Source: an uncultured Pseudomonadales bacterium
GTDB taxonomy: Bacteria > Patescibacteriota > Microgenomatia > UBA1400 > CAYNFZ01
DNA: 60,721 nt
Reading direction: 5' to 3'
NCBI GenBank assembly: GCA_964392715.1
Contig: CAYMQI010000001.1
Span: 1-60,721 of the forward strand
Shown: in pieces, positions 3 through 59,887 of the stretch
Position numbering within the stretch: the first letter of the stretch is position 1
How the letters are laid out: each line of letters opens with the position of its first letter
Made by a program: the position numbers and the translations under genes
Notes under the pieces: model-generated
Database searches by the model: none
What the model was told of the DNA's origin: nothing
What the model saw: the letters and a program-made list of their open reading frames with translations, nothing else

Positions 3-1595
3 AGCGCCCAAGACCCGTTTATTACCGGCCTTATCGGCCTCTTTGCTAAAGTTAAACACTCAATACCCCTAAATATCCAATTACATAACGACTTTTTTAC
101 CAATCCCTATTGGCAGAGCGAATCGCTCCAAAACCGCCTGTTTTTTTTCTTGGGTCCGCTGGTGCTTAGGTTTGCCGACAGCGTCCGCGCCGTTAGTCCC
201 CGCATCGCCGCCCACCTTCATTCACACCTCTTGCCAAAAATTCCCTGTTGGATTATTCCCGTTCCGCCAGATAAAAAATTTCTTACTGTCAAACCTGCCC
301 GCCGCCGCCCAATCGATGTTATCGCCGTCGGTCGTCTCTCACCCCAGAAAAACTTTTCCGATTTATTGCGGGCCGTATCTTTGATTGTCAAAAAATTTCC
401 TCAAACCCAAGTCGTTATCGTCGGGTCCGGACCAGAACGGTCGTCGCTTGTTGCTCAAGTGGACAGTCTCCACCTTGAAGCCAACGTCACCTTTGTGGGT
501 GCCAAAAACCAGTCTCAAACCGCCAAACTCCTCTCAGAGTCCAAAATTTACCTATCTACTTCAAATTATGAAGGTAGCAGTATTTCTCTGATCGAAGCCA
601 TGCTTATTGGACTGCCCGCTGTCGTCACCAAAGTCAGTGGCAGTCAAACACTGATCAAGTCAGCCATTAACGGTTACTTGGTTATACCCGGAGATTTTCG
701 TAGCCTTGCCAAACATGTCAATAACATCCTCTCAGACAAACACCTCTACCGTCGCTTGGCTCGCGGCTCCGCCAGGTCTGGTCAACACTTTCTTAAAGTC
801 CACCCGGAAAGCGCCTGGACAAATTGTTTAATCGCTGCCGCGGCCAAAGACACGCTCACCAAGTCCATGAAGCGGGCCAACATTACCCATTACGACCACA
901 ATCAATCAGAAATAGCCAAGTCCACAAATCACGCGAGCAAGTTAATTTATTATCCCCAAATGGTCTCTTTTGCCGCCAACTATCTTGATTTACAAGATAC
1001 CCTCATCGACATTGGTGGCGGGGCCGGCGTCTTAACCTCGCTAATCGCCGCCAAGATCCCCGACCTTAAAATTATTGGTTTAGACATATCAAAACTAATG
1101 TGCCAATCACGCATCAAAGTTGGCCTGACCGACAATCTTGTCGGGGACATGGACCGTCTGCCGATCCTCTCCAACTCAGCTGACGCAGTAATTTTTATTG
1201 CTTCCATCCATCACACCCTCAACACCGATTTGGCAATTCAGGAAGCCTACCGGATCCTCAAACCCGGTGGACGGGTGATTCTCCTTGAGCACAATTCTTT
1301 TCGCTATCTTTTCCAACTGCAGCAAACCCGTGCCATTCCCGCCCCCAACGACTCAAGAGAATGCCTGATCAATCACCACTTAATTACCCATCAACTCCAA
1401 TCTTTCGGTTTTATCATTCTTCATGATTCGGTTCATCGTCAACTGGTCAGTCTCGTCGAAATGTTTTGGAAACAAATACCCCTGCCTTTTTATCGGTTGC
1501 TTACCCTCATCGATCGGGCCACAAATAACCTTCCCCTTTACAAAGAGCTTGGCAACTTAAGTTTCACCGTTGCCCTCAAACCGTTCACCCAATAA
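3..1595 (+). CDS. Two-domain protein with its 5' end outside the window: GT4 (group 1) glycosyltransferase fused to a class I SAM-dependent methyltransferase
   Basis: The frame of ORF 150..1595 stays open back to nt 3 (SAQDPFITGLIGLFAKVKHS...), so the gene starts upstream of the window. GT-B C-terminal half: VIAVGRLSPQKNF, VVIVGSGPE, NYEGSSISLIEAMLIGLPAVVT. Second domain: LIDIGGGAGVL (SAM motif I), ADAVIFIASIHH, LKPGGRVILLE. Confidence 0.8.
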   Translation, partial: SAQDPFITGLIGLFAKVKHSIPLNIQLHNDFFTNPYWQSESLQNRLFFFLGPLVLRFADSVRAVSPRIAAHLHSHLLPKIPCWIIPVPPDKKFLTVKPARRRPIDVIAVGRLSPQKNFSDLLRAVSLIVKKFPQTQVVIVGSGPERSSLVAQVDSLHLEANVTFVGAKNQSQTAKLLSESKIYLSTSNYEGSSISLIEAMLIGLPAVVTKVSGSQTLIKSAINGYLVIPGDFRSLAKHVNNILSDKHLYRRLARGSARSGQHFLKVHPESAWTNCLIAAAAKDTLTKSMKRANITHYDHNQSEIAKSTNHASKLIYYPQMVSFAANYLDLQDTLIDIGGGAGVLTSLIAAKIPDLKIIGLDISKLMCQSRIKVGLTDNLVGDMDRLPILSNSADAVIFIASIHHTLNTDLAIQEAYRILKPGGRVILLEHNSFRYLFQLQQTRAIPAPNDSRECLINHHLITHQLQSFGFIILHDSVHRQLVSLVEMFWKQIPLPFYRLLTLIDRATNNLPLYKELGNLSFTVALKPFTQ

Positions 1596-1600
1596 CACCC

Positions 1601-57846: not shown

Positions 57847-57850
57847 CCAC

Positions 57851-59887
57851 ATGACCGACTTGCCCGCCGATCAAAATAGCAACATCTTAAATTTCATCAA
57901 CAACTCGCCCCTTCCCGATGACAACCCGGCCATGTCTCCGGGTTCGGCTCCCGCCAAGCCACCATCTTCCAAGCCACCACCCGCCTCCAAACCCCCCGCA
58001 CCCCCCAAACAGCTCGCTGGCCCCAAAAGACTGCGCGTCAACTTTCGCGCCAAAAAATTCTGGTTTGCTTTATCACTCATTCTTCTCCTGCCCGCCCTTA
58101 CTTTAGCAGTTGCCCTTCCGCTGCTCCAAATCAAGGCCGCCGCCGCCAGGCTCGAAACCTCAGGCCGCTCCACCTACGATTCTCTCAAGGCCCAAAACTT
58201 GATCACCGCCCAGGCCAACTTGGCCGACACCAGCACCGCCCTTGACGACATTTCCCGCTCCTACGCTTATCTTGTCTGGCTCCGGGTCACCCCTCTTGCC
58301 TGGCACTACGCCGACGGTGGACACGCCCTGCGCGCCGCTCAGGCAGGATTACACGCTGCCACCACTTTGGTTGACAGCCTCGAGCCCTATGCCGACGTTC
58401 TGGGCTTTGCCGGCGAAGGCTCTTTTACCGGCGGCACCGCCGAAGAACGTCTGGTCAAGATCCTCGAAACTCTGGACAAGCTCACTCCGTCTCTCGATCA
58501 AGTCACGGCCGACCTAGAGACGGTTCAAACTGAATTAAAACAGATCAGCCCGAGCCGCTACCCCTTTACCATCAAAGGACAAAAAATTGAGGACTTGCTC
58601 ACAAAAGCTCAGGACTTATCTTCAACCGCCGTCACCGCCGTCACCGACCTCAAACCCATCCTCGAGGTCTTACCCGCCGCCGCCGGCCTCAATAGCCCCA
58701 AACGCTACTTGGTCCTGTTTCAAAACGACGCCGAAATCCGCGCCACAGGCGGCTTTATGACCGCTTATGCCGTAATGACCGTCGACAAAGGCAAGGTCAA
58801 CCCCGAGCAAAACGACGATATCTACCACCTCGACGACAAATTTAAGAGACGCCTCCCTCCACCCGCCCCCATCAAAAAATACCTGCCCCTGGTTTACTAC
58901 TGGTACCTCCGGGACATGAACCTCTCCCCAGACTTTAAAACCTCCATGGATACCTTCCTCGAGCACTACCAGACAATTCCCGGTGAACCCAAAGACCTGG
59001 ATGGCGTCATCGCCATCGACACCCACCTCTTAAGCGATCTCGTTTCGACCCTTGGCCCCATCGACGTCCCCGGTTTTGGCACTTTTTCCTCAGAGGTCGA
59101 CCCCCGCTGCAACTGCCCCCAAGTCATCTATCAACTCGAGGACATGGCCTCCCGCCCGGTCGCCACCCTGCGAACCGACCGCAAAGCTTTCCTCGGGCCA
59201 ATGATGCAGACCCTGATTCTCAAAGCCTACGGCGCCCAAAACAGCCAATGGCCCAATCTCTTTGAGACCTTTATCAACAATGTTATGCAAAAACACGTCC
59301 TTTTCTACATGTTCGACGAAGCCGCCCAGACAGCCGCCGCTACCGTGGGTATCTCCGGCCACGTCGAAGACGCGGCTGGCGACTACTTTCTGGTCGTTGA
59401 CGTCAACTTCGGCGGCGCCAAATCCAACATCTTTATCACCGAAGACGTTGATCTGGCCACTACCTTGACTGACGCCGGCACCACCACTGCCGCAACCATC
59501 ACCTACAAAAACCCCGCCGCCGGCAGTAACTGTAACTTAGAAGCCGGCCAGCTTTGTCTAAATGGCACTTATCGCGACTACGTCCGTTTTTATTTGCCCC
59601 AAGGCAGCACCTTGACCGAATCACTTGGGTTCGAGGAAGACACCGTGCAAACTTATGATGAATTGGGCAAAACCGTTGTCGAAGGTTTCTTTACCCTCCA
59701 ACCCCAATCTCAGGCTAAAGTCAAACTCACCTACAACTCTCCCCAAAAATTCACCGACCAATATCGCCTCAAGATCCAAAAACAGCCCGGAAAAAAAGAG
59801 CCCAAATACACAGTTGTCGTCAATGACGCCTACAAACAAGAATTTGACCTCAACACCGACCGGGAAGTTGTCTTCGATTTGAATTGA
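57851..59887 (+). CDS. DUF4012-family membrane-anchored extracytoplasmic protein
   Basis: Pro-rich N-terminal tail (PAKPPSSKPPPASKPPAPPK), one TM helix, then YLVLFQNDAEIRATGGFMTAYAVMTVDKGKV, which matches the DUF4012 signature as I recall it. Confidence 0.65.
   Translation: MTDLPADQNSNILNFINNSPLPDDNPAMSPGSAPAKPPSSKPPPASKPPAPPKQLAGPKRLRVNFRAKKFWFALSLILLLPALTLAVALPLLQIKAAAARLETSGRSTYDSLKAQNLITAQANLADTSTALDDISRSYAYLVWLRVTPLAWHYADGGHALRAAQAGLHAATTLVDSLEPYADVLGFAGEGSFTGGTAEERLVKILETLDKLTPSLDQVTADLETVQTELKQISPSRYPFTIKGQKIEDLLTKAQDLSSTAVTAVTDLKPILEVLPAAAGLNSPKRYLVLFQNDAEIRATGGFMTAYAVMTVDKGKVNPEQNDDIYHLDDKFKRRLPPPAPIKKYLPLVYYWYLRDMNLSPDFKTSMDTFLEHYQTIPGEPKDLDGVIAIDTHLLSDLVSTLGPIDVPGFGTFSSEVDPRCNCPQVIYQLEDMASRPVATLRTDRKAFLGPMMQTLILKAYGAQNSQWPNLFETFINNVMQKHVLFYMFDEAAQTAAATVGISGHVEDAAGDYFLVVDVNFGGAKSNIFITEDVDLATTLTDAGTTTAATITYKNPAAGSNCNLEAGQLCLNGTYRDYVRFYLPQGSTLTESLGFEEDTVQTYDELGKTVVEGFFTLQPQSQAKVKLTYNSPQKFTDQYRLKIQKQPGKKEPKYTVVVNDAYKQEFDLNTDREVVFDLN

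Follow-up and report, generated by a model that had tools for sequence, protein, structure and literature searches.

Gene content and organization of the locus

The window, i.e., the whole stretch of 60,721 nucleotides analysed here, was searched with Pfam and NCBIfam, and a glycan-related family was assigned to 52 of the 54 genes that precede the gene for RecO (59900..60514; RecO_N, 71 bits; here and below, genes are on the forward strand unless marked (-)). This agrees with a sequence-only reading of the same DNA, which had linked nearly every gene up to recO to glycan synthesis and had placed the locus at positions 3-59887. The right edge of that interval stands, as RecO lies outside the locus and forms its right-hand boundary, but the left edge was too narrow: upstream of the window the locus runs on for at least 8.4 kb, with four more GT4 genes and a PpgS-like GT2 gene with a DUF2304 partner, giving a total of at least 69 kb seen. 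The two genes without a glycan family keep their positions in two relatives (L020 and L021). One encodes a conserved single-pass membrane protein with one N-terminal transmembrane (TM) helix and no match in a Pfam search (31132..32022), and the other a conserved 243-aa protein (34709..35440; orthologues at 317 bits) with a faint likeness to the central domain of NDP-sugar dehydrogenases (TIGR03026, 31 bits).

The 23 genes from 33093 to 59887 all run in one direction and either overlap or lie no more than about 205 bp apart, a tight spacing that suggests operons, and genes for membrane enzymes of the GT-C type are interleaved with cytoplasmic glycosyltransferase (GT) genes in these apparent operons. 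The left half is cut into at least seven blocks by strand switches. GC content is 0.37-0.41 at 8-22 kb versus 0.50-0.55 at 26-60 kb; the GC skew is extreme and highly unusual, yet uniform over the whole window. The last gene before RecO encodes a 678-aa DUF4012 protein (57851..59887; DUF4012, 95 bits) with a single TM helix at its N-terminus and, probably, a large domain on the outside. The order priming enzyme, DUF4012 protein, RecO was found in four Patescibacteria genomes, and the adjacency of the first two is also seen in the exopolysaccharide locus of Bifidobacterium longum (PMC5412050). Pfam searches found no outer-membrane or LPS genes among the window genes, and the reported lack of lipid A, Lpt and outer-membrane genes was thus borne out.

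Sugar-modifying enzymes and cytoplasmic glycosyltransferases

Two AsnB-like glutamine amidotransferases are encoded (3418..5253, Asn_synthase 296 bits, TIGR01536 468 bits; and 18855..20783 (-), Asn_synthase 182 bits), and the first probably amidates a sugar acid. A WecE-like dTDP-4-amino-4,6-dideoxyhexose aminotransferase (8362..9504 (-)) scores 556 bits against NF008687, above the 375-bit cut-off, and a WecD-like GNAT N-acetyltransferase (9501..10235 (-); Acetyltransf_1) scores 83 bits against NF008212, below cut-off. Between 11 and 24 kb there are a TylF-type sugar O-methyltransferase (11516..12214 (-); TylF, 131 bits), a DegT-family sugar aminotransferase (13375..14481 (-); DegT_DnrJ_EryC1, 386 bits), a GFO/IDH/MocA oxidoreductase resembling UDP-GlcNAc 3-dehydrogenase (14525..15595; GFO_IDH_MocA 99 bits; NF040723 161 bits, below cut-off), an ATP-grasp ligase (15592..16575; PylC-like_N, ATP-grasp_3) that would possibly place an amino-acyl group onto a sugar, an SDR nucleotide-sugar epimerase/dehydratase (16572..17564; Epimerase, 179 bits), a HAD-family hydrolase (17488..18150; HAD_2, 32 bits), a SAM methyltransferase (18154..18879; Methyltransf_23, 73 bits), a hexapeptide-repeat acyltransferase (20816..21682 (-); Hexapep 35 bits, WbbJ-like 64 bits), and a methyltransferase-like protein (22830..23447; Methyltransf_11, 27.5 bits). 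Three further SDR proteins are a GDP-L-fucose synthase-like protein (23361..24383 (-); Epimerase 190 bits; NF047922 294 bits, below cut-off), an epimerase/dehydratase (30083..31048 (-); Epimerase, 191 bits), and a protein like UDP-xylose synthase or the ArnA C-terminal domain (32032..33072 (-); Epimerase 193 bits; NF008872 122 and ArnA 109 bits, both below cut-offs). The remaining enzymes of this kind are an RfbH-like DegT-family aminotransferase/dehydratase (26893..28104; DegT 300 bits, NF011936 236 bits), a SAM methyltransferase (39217..39975; Methyltransf_11, 60 bits), a WcaF-like O-acetyltransferase (46792..47400; Hexapep 55.5 bits, NF007797 101 bits), and a ManC-like sugar-1-phosphate nucleotidyltransferase (56109..57209; NTP_transferase 78 bits; TIGR01479 225 bits, below cut-off).

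Pfam counts 11 GT4-like enzymes, seven GT2 enzymes and one PglC-type enzyme in the window, reproducing the approximate numbers reported earlier, and at least 23 cytoplasmic GTs are present when the upstream part is included. The first GT4 is fused to a SAM methyltransferase (3..1595; Glycos_transf_1 127 bits, Methyltransf_11 61 bits); the window start truncates it, leaving the C-terminal portion of a protein of 622 aa whose full gene is present in L009-L014. The other GT4 enzymes match Glycos_transf_1 (5250..6353, 91 bits; 6350..7519, 89 bits; 10225..11511 (-), 48 bits; 43387..44505, 80.5 bits; 45708..46808, 89 bits; 53746..54879, 89 bits; 55015..56130, called as 371 aa, 119 bits), Glyco_trans_1_4 (39972..40994, 68 bits; 51432..52721, 78 bits) or, for a GT4-like protein, Glyco_trans_1_2 (12229..13368 (-), 96 bits). 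Five GT2 enzymes match Glycos_transf_2 (7512..8381, 67 bits; 38420..39220, 43 bits; 40984..41844, 114 bits; 47488..48375, 90 bits; 52769..53614, called as 281 aa, 82 bits), and the one at 47488 opens a conserved right-hand module that is syntenic in two more distant relatives (L015 and L018). No protein reached the NCBIfam cut-off for a characterised GT.

The other two GT2 enzymes in the window (25888..26676; AglJ 119, PgfS 69, PpgS 58 and ArnC 57 bits; and 28128..28820; AglJ 92, Dol-P-hexose transferase 51 and PpgS 39 bits), together with the one upstream, resemble polyprenyl-phosphate-sugar synthases and would supply donors to the GT-C enzymes. Alignments of all three to these families are near full length (AglJ and PpgS for 25888; AglJ, Dol-P-hexose transferase and PpgS for 28128), with every score below cut-off. 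The upstream enzyme is followed by the small DUF2304 membrane protein, an arrangement similar to that of PpgS, which is followed by the small membrane protein Rv3632 (PMC3485146). The genes at 25888 (GT2), 26893 (DegT), 28128 (GT2), 28813 (GT-C) and 30083 (SDR) together match the Arn pathway in the kinds of enzyme that they encode.

Priming and export

The two parallel export routes described in the sequence-only reading were recovered by Pfam. One comprises a Wzx-like MOP-family flippase with about 10 TM helices (37126..38409; Polysacc_synt 33 bits, Polysacc_synt_3 28 bits) and a polytopic Wzy_C-domain protein (48341..49930; Wzy_C, 45 bits; syntenic in L015 and L018). This domain also occurs in ligases and protein O-oligosaccharyltransferases, and 48341 may act either as a polymerase of repeat units or as a ligase/O-oligosaccharyltransferase. 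The other comprises a Wzm-type ABC-2 permease (25135..25917 (-); ABC2_membrane, 58 bits) and a Wzt-type ATPase (24386..25126 (-); ABC_tran, 82 bits) that is without a C-terminal glycan-binding domain and has TagH and galactan Wzt, both under cut-off, as its closest NCBIfam models. The priming enzyme, a small PglC-type polyprenyl-phosphate phosphoglycosyltransferase (57229..57846; Bac_transf 201 bits, TIGR03025 242, WbaP-type 234), is present as a single copy in the 69 kb seen.

Eight membrane enzymes of the GT-C type

Eight polytopic proteins, each with 6-11 hydrophobic helices in a crude hydropathy scan, were assigned to the GT-C enzymes. Seven had earlier been called clear; six of these pass Pfam PMT/PMT_2 gathering scores, and Pfam is the only basis of these six assignments. 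They are a 599-aa protein with about 11 TM helices, a C-terminal soluble domain and a GDEYD motif that follows the helix of residues 120-138 (1601..3400; PMT_2 57 bits, PMT 36 bits); a protein whose called gene encodes 429 aa (28813..30102 (-); PMT_2 38 bits; orthologue in L020); two 503-aa proteins with orthologues in L020 and L021, with an LDEE (35646..37157; PMT_2 36.5 bits) and an LDEA motif (41841..43352; PMT_2 36.9 bits) after TM1; a protein called as 380 aa (44477..45619; PMT 32.6 bits; orthologue in L021); and a 488-aa protein (49927..51393; PMT_2 56.3 bits, PMT 37.5, Glyco_transf_22 25) with orthologues at 476 bits in L015 and 436 bits in L018.

The seventh, of 513 aa (33093..34634), was placed by its DUF2142 match (95 bits) and an AlphaFold model (pLDDT 94.9), for which the best 25 Foldseek matches in the PDB are exclusively GT-C enzymes; many of its homologues match PMT_2 too. 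An eighth, previously only a possibility, is a membrane-only protein of 367 aa (21720..22823) that scores 24.3 bits against PMT_2, under the Pfam threshold of 26.1, and belongs to a rare family with 17 representatives in 1.84 billion proteins. The best 40 PDB matches of its AlphaFold model (pLDDT 94.4) are all GT-C-fold proteins, with ArnT at the top (TMq 0.61). The best solved structures for these two proteins are ArnT, ALG9/3, STT3/PglB, Emb, Aft and Pmt, and their families are related (hhalign, 95% probability). Catalytic acids of GT-C enzymes sit directly after TM1; here, 55 homologues of the 33093 family share invariant P33, D34, E35, Q36 and H38 in this place, and D35 is near-invariant directly after TM1 in the 21720 family. 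By their models, both proteins have the GT-C fold. Among all eight proteins, phmmer gave no mutual detection except for one pair (E = 3e-4), and this dissimilarity agrees with the remark that the GT-C partners of such systems lack sequence conservation, each having its own acceptor (PMC9574508).

The locus could also serve mainly in protein glycosylation, a reading that we regard as unlikely. The PMT-like enzymes would pass sugars from polyprenyl phosphates to Ser/Thr residues of surface proteins such as pilins and S-layer proteins, in the manner of actinobacterial Pmt, which transfers sugars from polyprenyl-phosphate-sugars directly onto protein Ser/Thr. The role of 48341 would be that of a PglL/PilO-type O-oligosaccharyltransferase, which hands a PglC-primed, Wzx-flipped oligosaccharide to proteins. 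This would fit the matches of 1601, 44477 and 49927 both to PMT_2 and to the true PMT family, PF02366, although these PMT scores are low (33-37 bits) and the NCBIfam Pmt models are unmatched. Wzy_C is common to O-oligosaccharyltransferases, a small PglC-type primer is typical of such loci, and the locus is without an LCP wall ligase; however, the 69 kb seen hold no gene for a pilin, S-layer protein or other acceptor, and Pfam gave no STT3/PglB/AglB family match. Protein acceptors are also favoured by the many type IV pili and the Gram-positive-like envelope of CPR bacteria (PMC6744442), but long polymers, and not short glycans on proteins, are suggested by an ABC-2 exporter closest to TagH and galactan Wzt together with 23 or more cytoplasmic GTs.

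Integrity of the contig and conservation in relatives

The contig is real and contiguous, and not chimeric. Pieces of the window recur at 99.5-99.98% identity in at least eight independent groundwater assemblies. In the long contig k141_1246894 (65.7 kb), from an independent assembly, genes 1601 and 49927 lie 48,675 bp apart versus 48,326 bp in the window, and the difference of 349 bp is a local duplication in that assembly. In scaffold_418 (67.9 kb) the spacing is identical and the window lies wholly inside the scaffold coordinates; the scaffold is possibly the very contig of the window and was left out of the count. The heterogeneous GC content could be taken as a sign of a chimeric metagenome assembly, and the failure of single-sequence searches of PDB sequences to match the polytopic proteins as a sign that these are transporters or polymerases. 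Such an artefact is effectively refuted and is given almost no weight, because the assemblies agree, the unusual GC skew does not change across the window, and all eight proteins fall in GT-C by Pfam and by fold searches, with transporters at Foldseek probabilities of at most 0.18 and no transporter family matched.

The window comes from a population of tiny, uncultured groundwater Patescibacteria (CPR), possibly of the Microgenomates type. Its relatives are Patescibacteria too, and most of the locus was found to be syntenic in relatives. The gene order of window positions 23.4-60 kb (~37 kb, six GT-C genes) is kept, with the compared proteins 39-52% identical, which argues for one functional unit, and the low-GC left part of the locus looks variable. 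A rather doubtful but possible alternative is that several independent glycan loci lie side by side, each with its own product and the routes not joined, for example a Wzy-dependent capsule or exopolysaccharide (47488-59887), an ABC-dependent wall polymer (23361-31048), a lipoglycan and a variable island. The change in GC content and the strand-switched blocks of the left half are in line with this, as are the lack of segment 25888-28820, between Wzm and GT-C 28813, in L020 and the synteny in L015 and L018, where the comparison covers the 47488-RecO module only. On the other hand, the ABC block, four GT-C genes and the Wzx block remain adjacent in L020, as do the Wzx block and GT-C genes in L021; the interleaving of GT-C with cytoplasmic GT genes and the single priming enzyme likewise speak against separate loci, and where a characterised locus combines both routes, its product is a single composite polymer (PMC9574508).

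Proposed function of the locus

On balance, we favour the reading that the locus makes a wall or surface glycopolymer through two export routes, to be finished outside the membrane in a manner like the multi-component transmembrane glycosylation that makes the cell-wall polysaccharides of Gram-positive bacteria. Cytoplasmic enzymes would produce unusual nucleotide sugars, such as an N-acetylated 4-amino-4,6-dideoxyhexose, amidated uronic acids, and O-methyl and O-acetyl sugars. The PglC-type enzyme 57229 would prime polyprenyl phosphate, and GT4 and GT2 enzymes would build lipid-linked oligosaccharides or chains at the inner membrane face. One product would be flipped by 37126 and then polymerised or ligated by 48341, and a second would leave through Wzm/Wzt (25135/24386). 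The three DPM1/PpgS/AglJ-like GT2 enzymes would load single sugars onto polyprenyl monophosphate, and on the outer side the eight mutually unrelated GT-C enzymes would use these lipid-linked donors to join the exported glycan or glycans, lengthen them or decorate them. Which donors and acceptors are used, in what order the steps run, and whether one composite polymer or several result are matters of inference in this scheme.

Several results count against this model. For eight GT-C enzymes there are only three candidate polyprenyl-phosphate-sugar synthases, and Pfam found no GtrA-family flippase in the window. The locus yielded no LCP-type ligase, Wzz/PCP co-polymerase or WecA/TagO-type second initiator, and it therefore offers no explanation for anchoring or for initiation of the ABC route.

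The arabinogalactan region of Mycobacterium tuberculosis, whose assembly the proposed process also resembles, has about six GT-C genes (Rv3779, aftA, embC/A/B, aftB); the eight seen here, to our knowledge the highest number of distinct GT-C enzymes for one bacterial locus, therefore set a record by degree and not by kind. The earlier impression of an unmatched number stands as to the count, but the kind of arrangement has precedent (PMC9574508). In the model for the rhamnose-rich cell-wall polysaccharides of lactococci and streptococci, to which the proposed assembly is likewise compared, the backbone is exported by an ABC transporter, the side chain is flipped by Wzx and joined by a GT-C enzyme, and extra decorations are made by three-component GT-C systems (PMC9574508); two export routes combined with GT-C enzymes are common to that model and this locus. 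Taken together, these data make it reasonably probable that the window holds most of one very large supercluster for cell-envelope glycans, spanning at least 69 kb, from a monoderm-type bacterium of the Patescibacteria (CPR), and that the plan of this cluster is one already known from Gram-positive bacteria and mycobacteria.

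Gene content of the locus

A six-frame ORF list of the window gave 55 non-overlapping genes with hardly any intergenic space, 41 on the plus strand and 14 on the minus strand (genes are named by start coordinate, with a trailing minus for the minus strand), and all 55 predicted proteins were covered by a Pfam scan. The sequence-only reading had counted about 18 cytoplasmic glycosyltransferases (GTs) and one PglC-type primer, and Pfam reproduced these counts: 11 GT4-like proteins (3/150, 5250, 6350, 10225-, 12229-, 39972, 43387, 45708, 51432, 53746 and 55006), seven GT2 proteins (7512, 25888, 28128, 38420, 40984, 47488 and 52739) and one small PglC-type phosphoglycosyltransferase (57229; Bac_transf, 201 bits). 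The families of the two export routes named in that reading were likewise found by Pfam. The Wzx/Wzy-type route is represented by the priming phosphoglycosyltransferase, a Wzx-like MOP flippase (37126; Polysacc_synt, 33 bits, cut-off 28.2) and a Wzy_C protein (48341; 45 bits, cut-off 31.7), the Wzy_C domain being common to polymerases and ligases. The ABC-dependent route is represented by a Wzm ABC-2 permease (25135-; ABC2_membrane, 58 bits) and a Wzt ATPase (24386-; ABC_tran, 82 bits), whose best NCBIfam matches, TagH and the galactan exporter Wzt, were both below cut-off.

Sugar-nucleotide tailoring is represented by three DegT aminotransferases, two AsnB-like amidotransferases, a UDP-GlcNAc-3-dehydrogenase-like oxidoreductase, an ATP-grasp ligase, four SDR epimerase/dehydratases, a TylF O-methyltransferase and other methyltransferases, two hexapeptide acyltransferases and a ManC-like nucleotidyltransferase. 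One of the three DegT proteins exceeded the NCBIfam cut-off for WecE-type dTDP-4-amino-4,6-dideoxyhexose transaminases (556 versus 375 bits), and its gene adjoins that of a WecD-like GNAT. Two proteins (31132-32022 and 34709-35440) matched no Pfam family, and RecO (59900) closes the locus at the right. The tRNA, Rfam and tandem-repeat scans found no tRNA, Rfam RNA or tandem repeat in the window. The predicted lack of lipid A/LPS genes was borne out, none being present in the locus, and the taxon is of the monoderm-type Patescibacteria. Furthermore, no GT or GT-C protein of the locus reached any NCBIfam family cut-off, and therefore no specificity is assignable to them.

Eight divergent GT-C enzymes

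The polytopic proteins, read from sequence as seven clear ArnT/PMT-like enzymes and a possible eighth, were identified as eight GT-C proteins, six by Pfam and two by predicted-fold comparison. The six scored above the Pfam gathering scores for PMT_2 or PMT, namely 1601 (57 bits), 28813- (38 bits), 35646 (36.5 bits), 41841 (36.9 bits), 44477 (32.6 bits) and 49927 (56 bits); matches to PF02366 (PMT) were at 33-37 bits for 1601, 44477 and 49927. A crude hydropathy scan gave 6-11 helices per protein in all eight. A 458-aa reading of 28813- is not on record, and the 429-aa form is the called gene.

The two remaining proteins, 33093 and 21720, were modelled with AF2 as helical bundles. Protein 33093 belongs to DUF2142 (95 bits) and has 362 homologues, many of which also match PMT_2; in an alignment of 55 homologues, P33, D34, E35, Q36 and H38 are invariant straight after helix 1. 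Its AlphaFold model (pLDDT 94.9) was compared with the PDB by Foldseek, and the best 25 matches were all GT-C proteins (probability 0.97-1.0, TMq up to 0.48), including ArnT, EmbA/B/C, STT3, AglB, PglB, ALG12/9/3, AftB and Pmt1/2; transporters came only after these, with a probability of at most 0.15. The possible eighth, 21720, was shown to have the GT-C fold by AF2 and Foldseek despite a PMT_2 score of 24.3 bits, below the Pfam threshold. A word-indexed search of 5.8 billion clusters returned only the protein itself, and an exhaustive HMMER search of 1.84 billion representatives gave a family of 17 proteins, in whose alignment D35 after TM1 is near-invariant (at least 90% of sequences). With this alignment a model of pLDDT 94.4 was built, and its best 40 PDB matches were all GT-C-fold proteins, with ArnT first (TMq 0.61) and then ALG9/ALG3. 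For both models, every Foldseek match of probability 1.0 was to a protein of GT-C fold. On these matches, 21720 is a minimal, 367-aa GT-C enzyme, predicted to lie wholly within the membrane. The 33093 and 21720 families are related (hhalign probability 95%). In a PDB sequence search, 1601, 49927, the DUF2142 profile (A1) and the DUF4012 protein gave nothing useful; fold comparison alone worked.

An acidic motif lies soon after the first or equivalent helix in all eight proteins; its conservation was checked across homologues for 33093 and 21720, and in the other six the D/E motif was read in the single sequence of each. Protein 1601 carries GDEYD, and a clear DE pair is absent from 44477 and 49927. 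None of the eight matched the NCBIfam ArnT (GT83) equivalog, and the Arabinose_trans and Emb C-terminal domains were absent from the Pfam results, so that Emb and Aft are matches at the level of fold only. We propose that the eight GT-C proteins would use polyprenyl-phosphate sugar donors outside the membrane, and the genomic context for this is three GT2 proteins, in or beside the locus, that resemble synthases of such donors.

When the eight were compared with one another by phmmer, the sole detected pair was 28813-/41841 (E = 3e-4). Since the proteins are otherwise blind to one another, they represent eight distinct lineages and not recent duplicates, and recent tandem duplication as the source of the set was ruled out. 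GT-C partners with differing acceptors have been described as sharing no sequence similarity (PMC9574508).

Contiguity, extent and strand asymmetry

Exact-protein matches to the locus were found in Rifle aquifer groundwater metagenomes (PRJNA268031, ANAN16-1 scaffolds, several k141/k127 assemblies and a JGI sample). By local BLAST, the window is 99.5-99.98% identical to pieces of at least eight independent assemblies, which span window positions 1-13400, 22051-31355 and 39927-60721. In the independent 65.7-kb contig k141_1246894, the GT-C genes 1601 and 49927 are 48,675 bp apart, compared to 48,326 bp in the window, and the extra 349 bp are a duplication of window 42522-42871. Their spacing in scaffold_418 (67.9 kb) is the same as in the window; this scaffold was left out of the independent count because the window lies wholly inside its coordinates and it may be the window's own contig. 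GC skew is alike in every 2-kb bin of the window. A chimeric contig, which the sequence-only reading had named as fatal to its claim, is therefore rejected by the independent assemblies, the k141_1246894 spacing and the uniform skew, and an artefact is extremely improbable.

Two sequence variants were also observed. The 350-bp tandem duplication of window 42522-42871 in k141_1246894 lies inside GT-C gene 41841 and cuts it into ORFs of 355 and 262 aa; it is either a population variant inactivating one GT-C or an assembly artefact. In a JGI assembly of this population, a single T is missing at window 24706, inside the Wzt gene (24386-25126), and the ABC ATPase is thereby cut into ORFs of 141 and 103 aa.

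As for the limits first placed at 3-59887, the right edge at RecO stood, but the left edge did not, as the same contigs continue the locus upstream. On contig L009, which carries the upstream stretch, a GT2 gene (L009:171-854; full-length PpgS match of 161 bits, below cut-off) is directly followed by a gene for a DUF2304 small membrane protein (851-1243), and then come, in order, an NDP-sugar dehydrogenase gene, an SDR gene, four GT4 genes and the start of the GT4-methyltransferase fusion whose remainder is at window 3-1595. The locus is therefore at least 69 kb long and encodes at least 15 GT4, eight GT2 and eight GT-C proteins and one priming enzyme (at least 32 GTs). The PpgS-like GT2 and DUF2304 pair is reminiscent of PpgS/Rv3632. 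An ORF for a Trm112p-like zinc ribbon of 54-55 aa lies amid the upstream GT4 genes (L009 5685-5849).

The window contains 18563 C versus 10338 G. GC skew is approximately -0.16 to -0.37 per 2-kb bin, and the asymmetry spans the window and the upstream 8.4 kb (contigs L009-L011). The third-codon-position skew is -0.515 in plus-strand genes and, read on the strand that encodes them, +0.396 in minus-strand genes; the bias is therefore of mutational origin and affects the strand as a whole. The C-rich strand holds 75% of coding bases, which reverses the common pattern of a leading strand rich in both G and genes. Skew is near 0 in syntenic relatives, save a piece of a Shapirobacteria MAG that has the same gene orientation and a skew of +0.24.

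A conserved core and an apparently variable part

The DUF4012 protein (57851) has relatives in Patescibacteria genomes only, namely a single-cell genome (52% identity), a Candidatus Shapirobacteria MAG (45%) and two other Patescibacteria MAGs. In all four, the order of PglC-type primer, DUF4012 and RecO (window 57229-60514) is kept at 39-52% identity, and this order fixes the right edge of the glycan locus beside a DNA-repair gene. The right-hand module, comprising GT2 47488, Wzy_C, GT-C 49927, GT4, GT2, GT4, GT4, ManC-like, PglC, DUF4012 and RecO, is wholly syntenic in two of these relatives (L015 and L018). DUF4012 is reported among the families enriched in CPR and Gram-positive bacteria (PMC6744442), and in a Bifidobacterium EPS locus (B. 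longum 105-A eps; PMC5412050), as in the window, DUF4012 adjoins and directly follows the priming phosphoglycosyltransferase.

Two long contigs with DUF2142 homologues (171 kb and 508 kb; L020 and L021) share with the window the gene order 31132, 32032, 33093, 34709, 35646, Wzx, GT2, GT4, GT2 and 41841, and L021 goes on with 43387 and 44477. In L020, an Fcl-like SDR, Wzt and Wzm directly adjoin the 28813- orthologue, and the 25888-28820 segment is absent. The synteny comparison suggested with the sequence-only reading thus revealed that the right-hand part, with six GT-C genes, keeps its order in relatives, and the shared order makes window 23.4-60 kb the conserved core. Window 8-22 kb and some insertions appear to form the variable part. 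GC content is 0.37-0.41 at 8-22 kb versus 0.50-0.55 at 26-60 kb within one contiguous locus; the low-GC part holds the amino-dideoxy-sugar, uronamide and methylation genes and the rare GT-C 21720, and its GC skew is the same as that of the rest of the locus. The loci of relatives that were examined showed no homologues of the low-GC part, and it looks like a variable, possibly exchanged, cassette.

The two proteins of the core that match no Pfam family are also kept in place. The 31132 protein, with a single N-terminal TM helix, retains its position in relatives (142-186 bits), and the 34709 protein has a counterpart at the same position in two relatives (317 bits) and only a faint likeness to the central domain of NDP-sugar dehydrogenases. 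The similar size of that counterpart ruled out 34709 as a pseudogene remnant of such a dehydrogenase. Both are candidates for a missing accessory role as activator, co-polymerase or ligase.

That several independent glycan loci lie side by side is partly compatible with the data and is a possible, though doubtful, explanation; the single primer and the conserved adjacency argue instead for one unit. Six of the eight GT-C genes have an order that divergent Patescibacteria share, with cytoplasmic GT genes set between them, and they may therefore not be optional decorators. We tentatively suggest, while rating it on the unlikely side, that these six enzymes could be the machinery that assembles the core of an envelope glycopolymer specific to CPR bacteria, mostly outside the membrane and from polyprenyl-phosphate sugars, in the manner of arabinan and lipomannan in mycobacteria.

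Comparison with known systems

In the rhamnose-rich wall polysaccharide system of Lactococcus and Streptococcus, an ABC transporter exports the backbone, Wzx flips the side chain and the GT-C WpsJ joins both; the GT-C WpsI acts as a polymerase, and there are further GT-C systems of the three-component type (PMC9574508, PMC9746298). The cwps/rgp/epa loci of Lactococcus, Streptococcus and Enterococcus share with the window locus an ABC-2 and a Wzx-type route in one locus, polytopic GT-C proteins (DUF2142-type included) acting outside the membrane and GT-A enzymes making polyprenyl-phosphate-sugar donors (both predicted here), GT-C partners without mutual sequence similarity, a monoderm envelope, and conserved and variable locus parts. 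The window differs in having no detected rmlABCD set or RgpA/B/F rhamnosyltransferase equivalogs (the rhamnosyltransferase model TIGR01556 scored 58-66 bits versus a 200-bit cut-off, and dTDP-glucose dehydratase models were below their cut-offs), in a PglC-type rather than TagO/WecA or WpsA/B primer, in lacking a GtrA flippase, LCP ligase and WpsH-like co-polymerase, and in its reduced-genome CPR host. At 69 kb or more, the locus is larger than cwps/rgp/epa loci are known to be, and it has eight GT-C genes versus the few (e.g., WpsI and WpsJ in L. lactis) that PMC9574508 names.

Mycobacterial arabinogalactan/LAM synthesis also involves many GT-C genes clustered with cytoplasmic GTs and a Wzm/Wzt-type ABC-2 exporter; the window shares this clustering, the exporter and, as predicted, polyprenyl-monophosphate donors. 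In the PpgS/Rv3632/Rv3779 system, PpgS is paired with a small membrane protein and the donors are polyprenyl-monophosphate sugars (PMC3485146), and a PpgS-like GT2 followed by a small membrane protein is common to both loci. The PpgS/Rv3632/Rv3779 and arabinan systems follow a logic similar to that modelled here, and the GT-C enzymes of the window may, as in mycobacteria, build core structure and not decoration alone. In contrast to mycobacteria, no Emb/Aft (Arabinose_trans), DPA or galactofuranose genes were detected by Pfam in the window, the GT-C proteins are small (367-599 aa) without large Emb-type C-terminal domains, and the phylum is another one with no mycolate context.

The block at 25888-31048 (DegT, two ArnC/DPM1-like GT2, SDR and GT-C) has the parts list of the Arn pathway (ArnB, ArnC, ArnA and ArnT), and ArnT is the best structural match for both the 21720 and 33093 models. 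However, unlike Arn/Gtr systems, the window has no lipid A acceptor, ArnA formyltransferase domain, or ArnE/F or GtrA flippase, and no window protein reached the NCBIfam Arn cut-offs. Gram-positive Wzx/Wzy capsule/EPS loci share with the window a Wzx-like flippase, Wzy_C and many GT4/GT2, but the window has no Wzz or tyrosine-kinase modulator, and its GT-C gene 49927 lies beside the Wzy_C gene, a pairing kept in relatives.

Proposed pathway

Three GT2 proteins, 25888, 28128 and the upstream PpgS-like GT2 (L009:171-854), gave alignments with the AglJ, PpgS and Dol-P-hexose transferase models that run from end to end but score below cut-offs, and 25888 and the PpgS-like GT2 also matched ArnC below cut-off. 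By this resemblance they are putative polyprenyl-phosphate-sugar synthases, and the parts of three-component systems are thus represented, by sequence or fold, by three such GT2 and eight GT-C proteins. Archaeal-type N-glycosylation, raised by the AglJ/Agl23-like matches, was not supported, as there was no STT3/AglB family match and RecO and the relatives are bacterial.

The families, folds, contiguity and synteny are observed, whereas the use of particular donors and acceptors, the sequence of the steps and how many final products arise are inferred in the following proposal, which builds on the synthase-like GT2 proteins and the Arn-like block. In the cytoplasm, GT4 and GT2 enzymes would build lipid-linked glycans from the PglC primer, and the three DPM1/PpgS-like GT2 would load a single sugar on polyprenyl monophosphate, the donor form for GT-C enzymes. 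One product would leave via Wzx and be processed by the Wzy_C protein, and a second would leave via Wzm/Wzt; outside the membrane, the eight GT-C enzymes would join, extend and decorate the exported products. By analogy, assembly logic like that of the lactococcal and streptococcal systems is the most likely mode of action.

Several parts have candidates or were absent. Pfam matched no GtrA-family flippase in the window, and the flippase candidates are the Wzx-like 37126 and the upstream DUF2304 protein. There was likewise no Pfam match in the window to a Wzz/PCP chain-length regulator, for which the DUF4012 protein is a candidate by position only, or to a second initiating enzyme (Glycos_transf_4; MraY/WecA), and no LCP ligase is in the locus. 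The GT4-methyltransferase fusion at 3-1595 is a speculative chain terminator for the ABC route. There are three donor-synthase candidates versus eight GT-C enzymes. Protein glycosylation by the PMT-like GT-C enzymes and a PglL-like Wzy_C protein would draw on the same families; no acceptor gene lies in the locus, however, and both the number of GTs and the ABC exporter point to polymers, making this explanation unlikely.

Significance

The design is already known from Firmicutes and Actinobacteria. New are its scale, with a length of at least 69 kb that holds eight GT-C proteins of hardly any mutual similarity among at least 32 GTs, the reduced-genome CPR host, the rare minimal GT-C family, and the keeping of six GT-C genes across relatives, which hints at core structure rather than optional decoration. 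No publication dealing with large glycan loci or GT-C enzymes of CPR bacteria was found in the literature library searched. The finding is noteworthy and bears usefully on the nature of the CPR cell surface, with no change of paradigm. It offers as targets the primer, the Wzy_C protein with its neighbouring GT-C, and the three putative polyprenyl-phosphate-sugar synthases. These could be reconstituted in heterologous hosts, used to study phage receptors and CPR-host recognition, or exploited in the search for new GT-C specificities (e.g., the 367-aa minimal family).

CPR/Patescibacteria have tiny genomes, typically of approximately 1 Mb, and live attached to other cells. If the genome here is of typical size, about 7% of it would be devoted to one glycan locus. 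Taken together, the length of the locus, its GT complement and its conserved core make it probable that the biology of this lineage centres on a complex glycopolymer of the wall or surface. If the six conserved GT-C enzymes do assemble the polymer core, the product would represent a new major class of cell-envelope polymer for the CPR radiation and a candidate structure for attachment to host cells.
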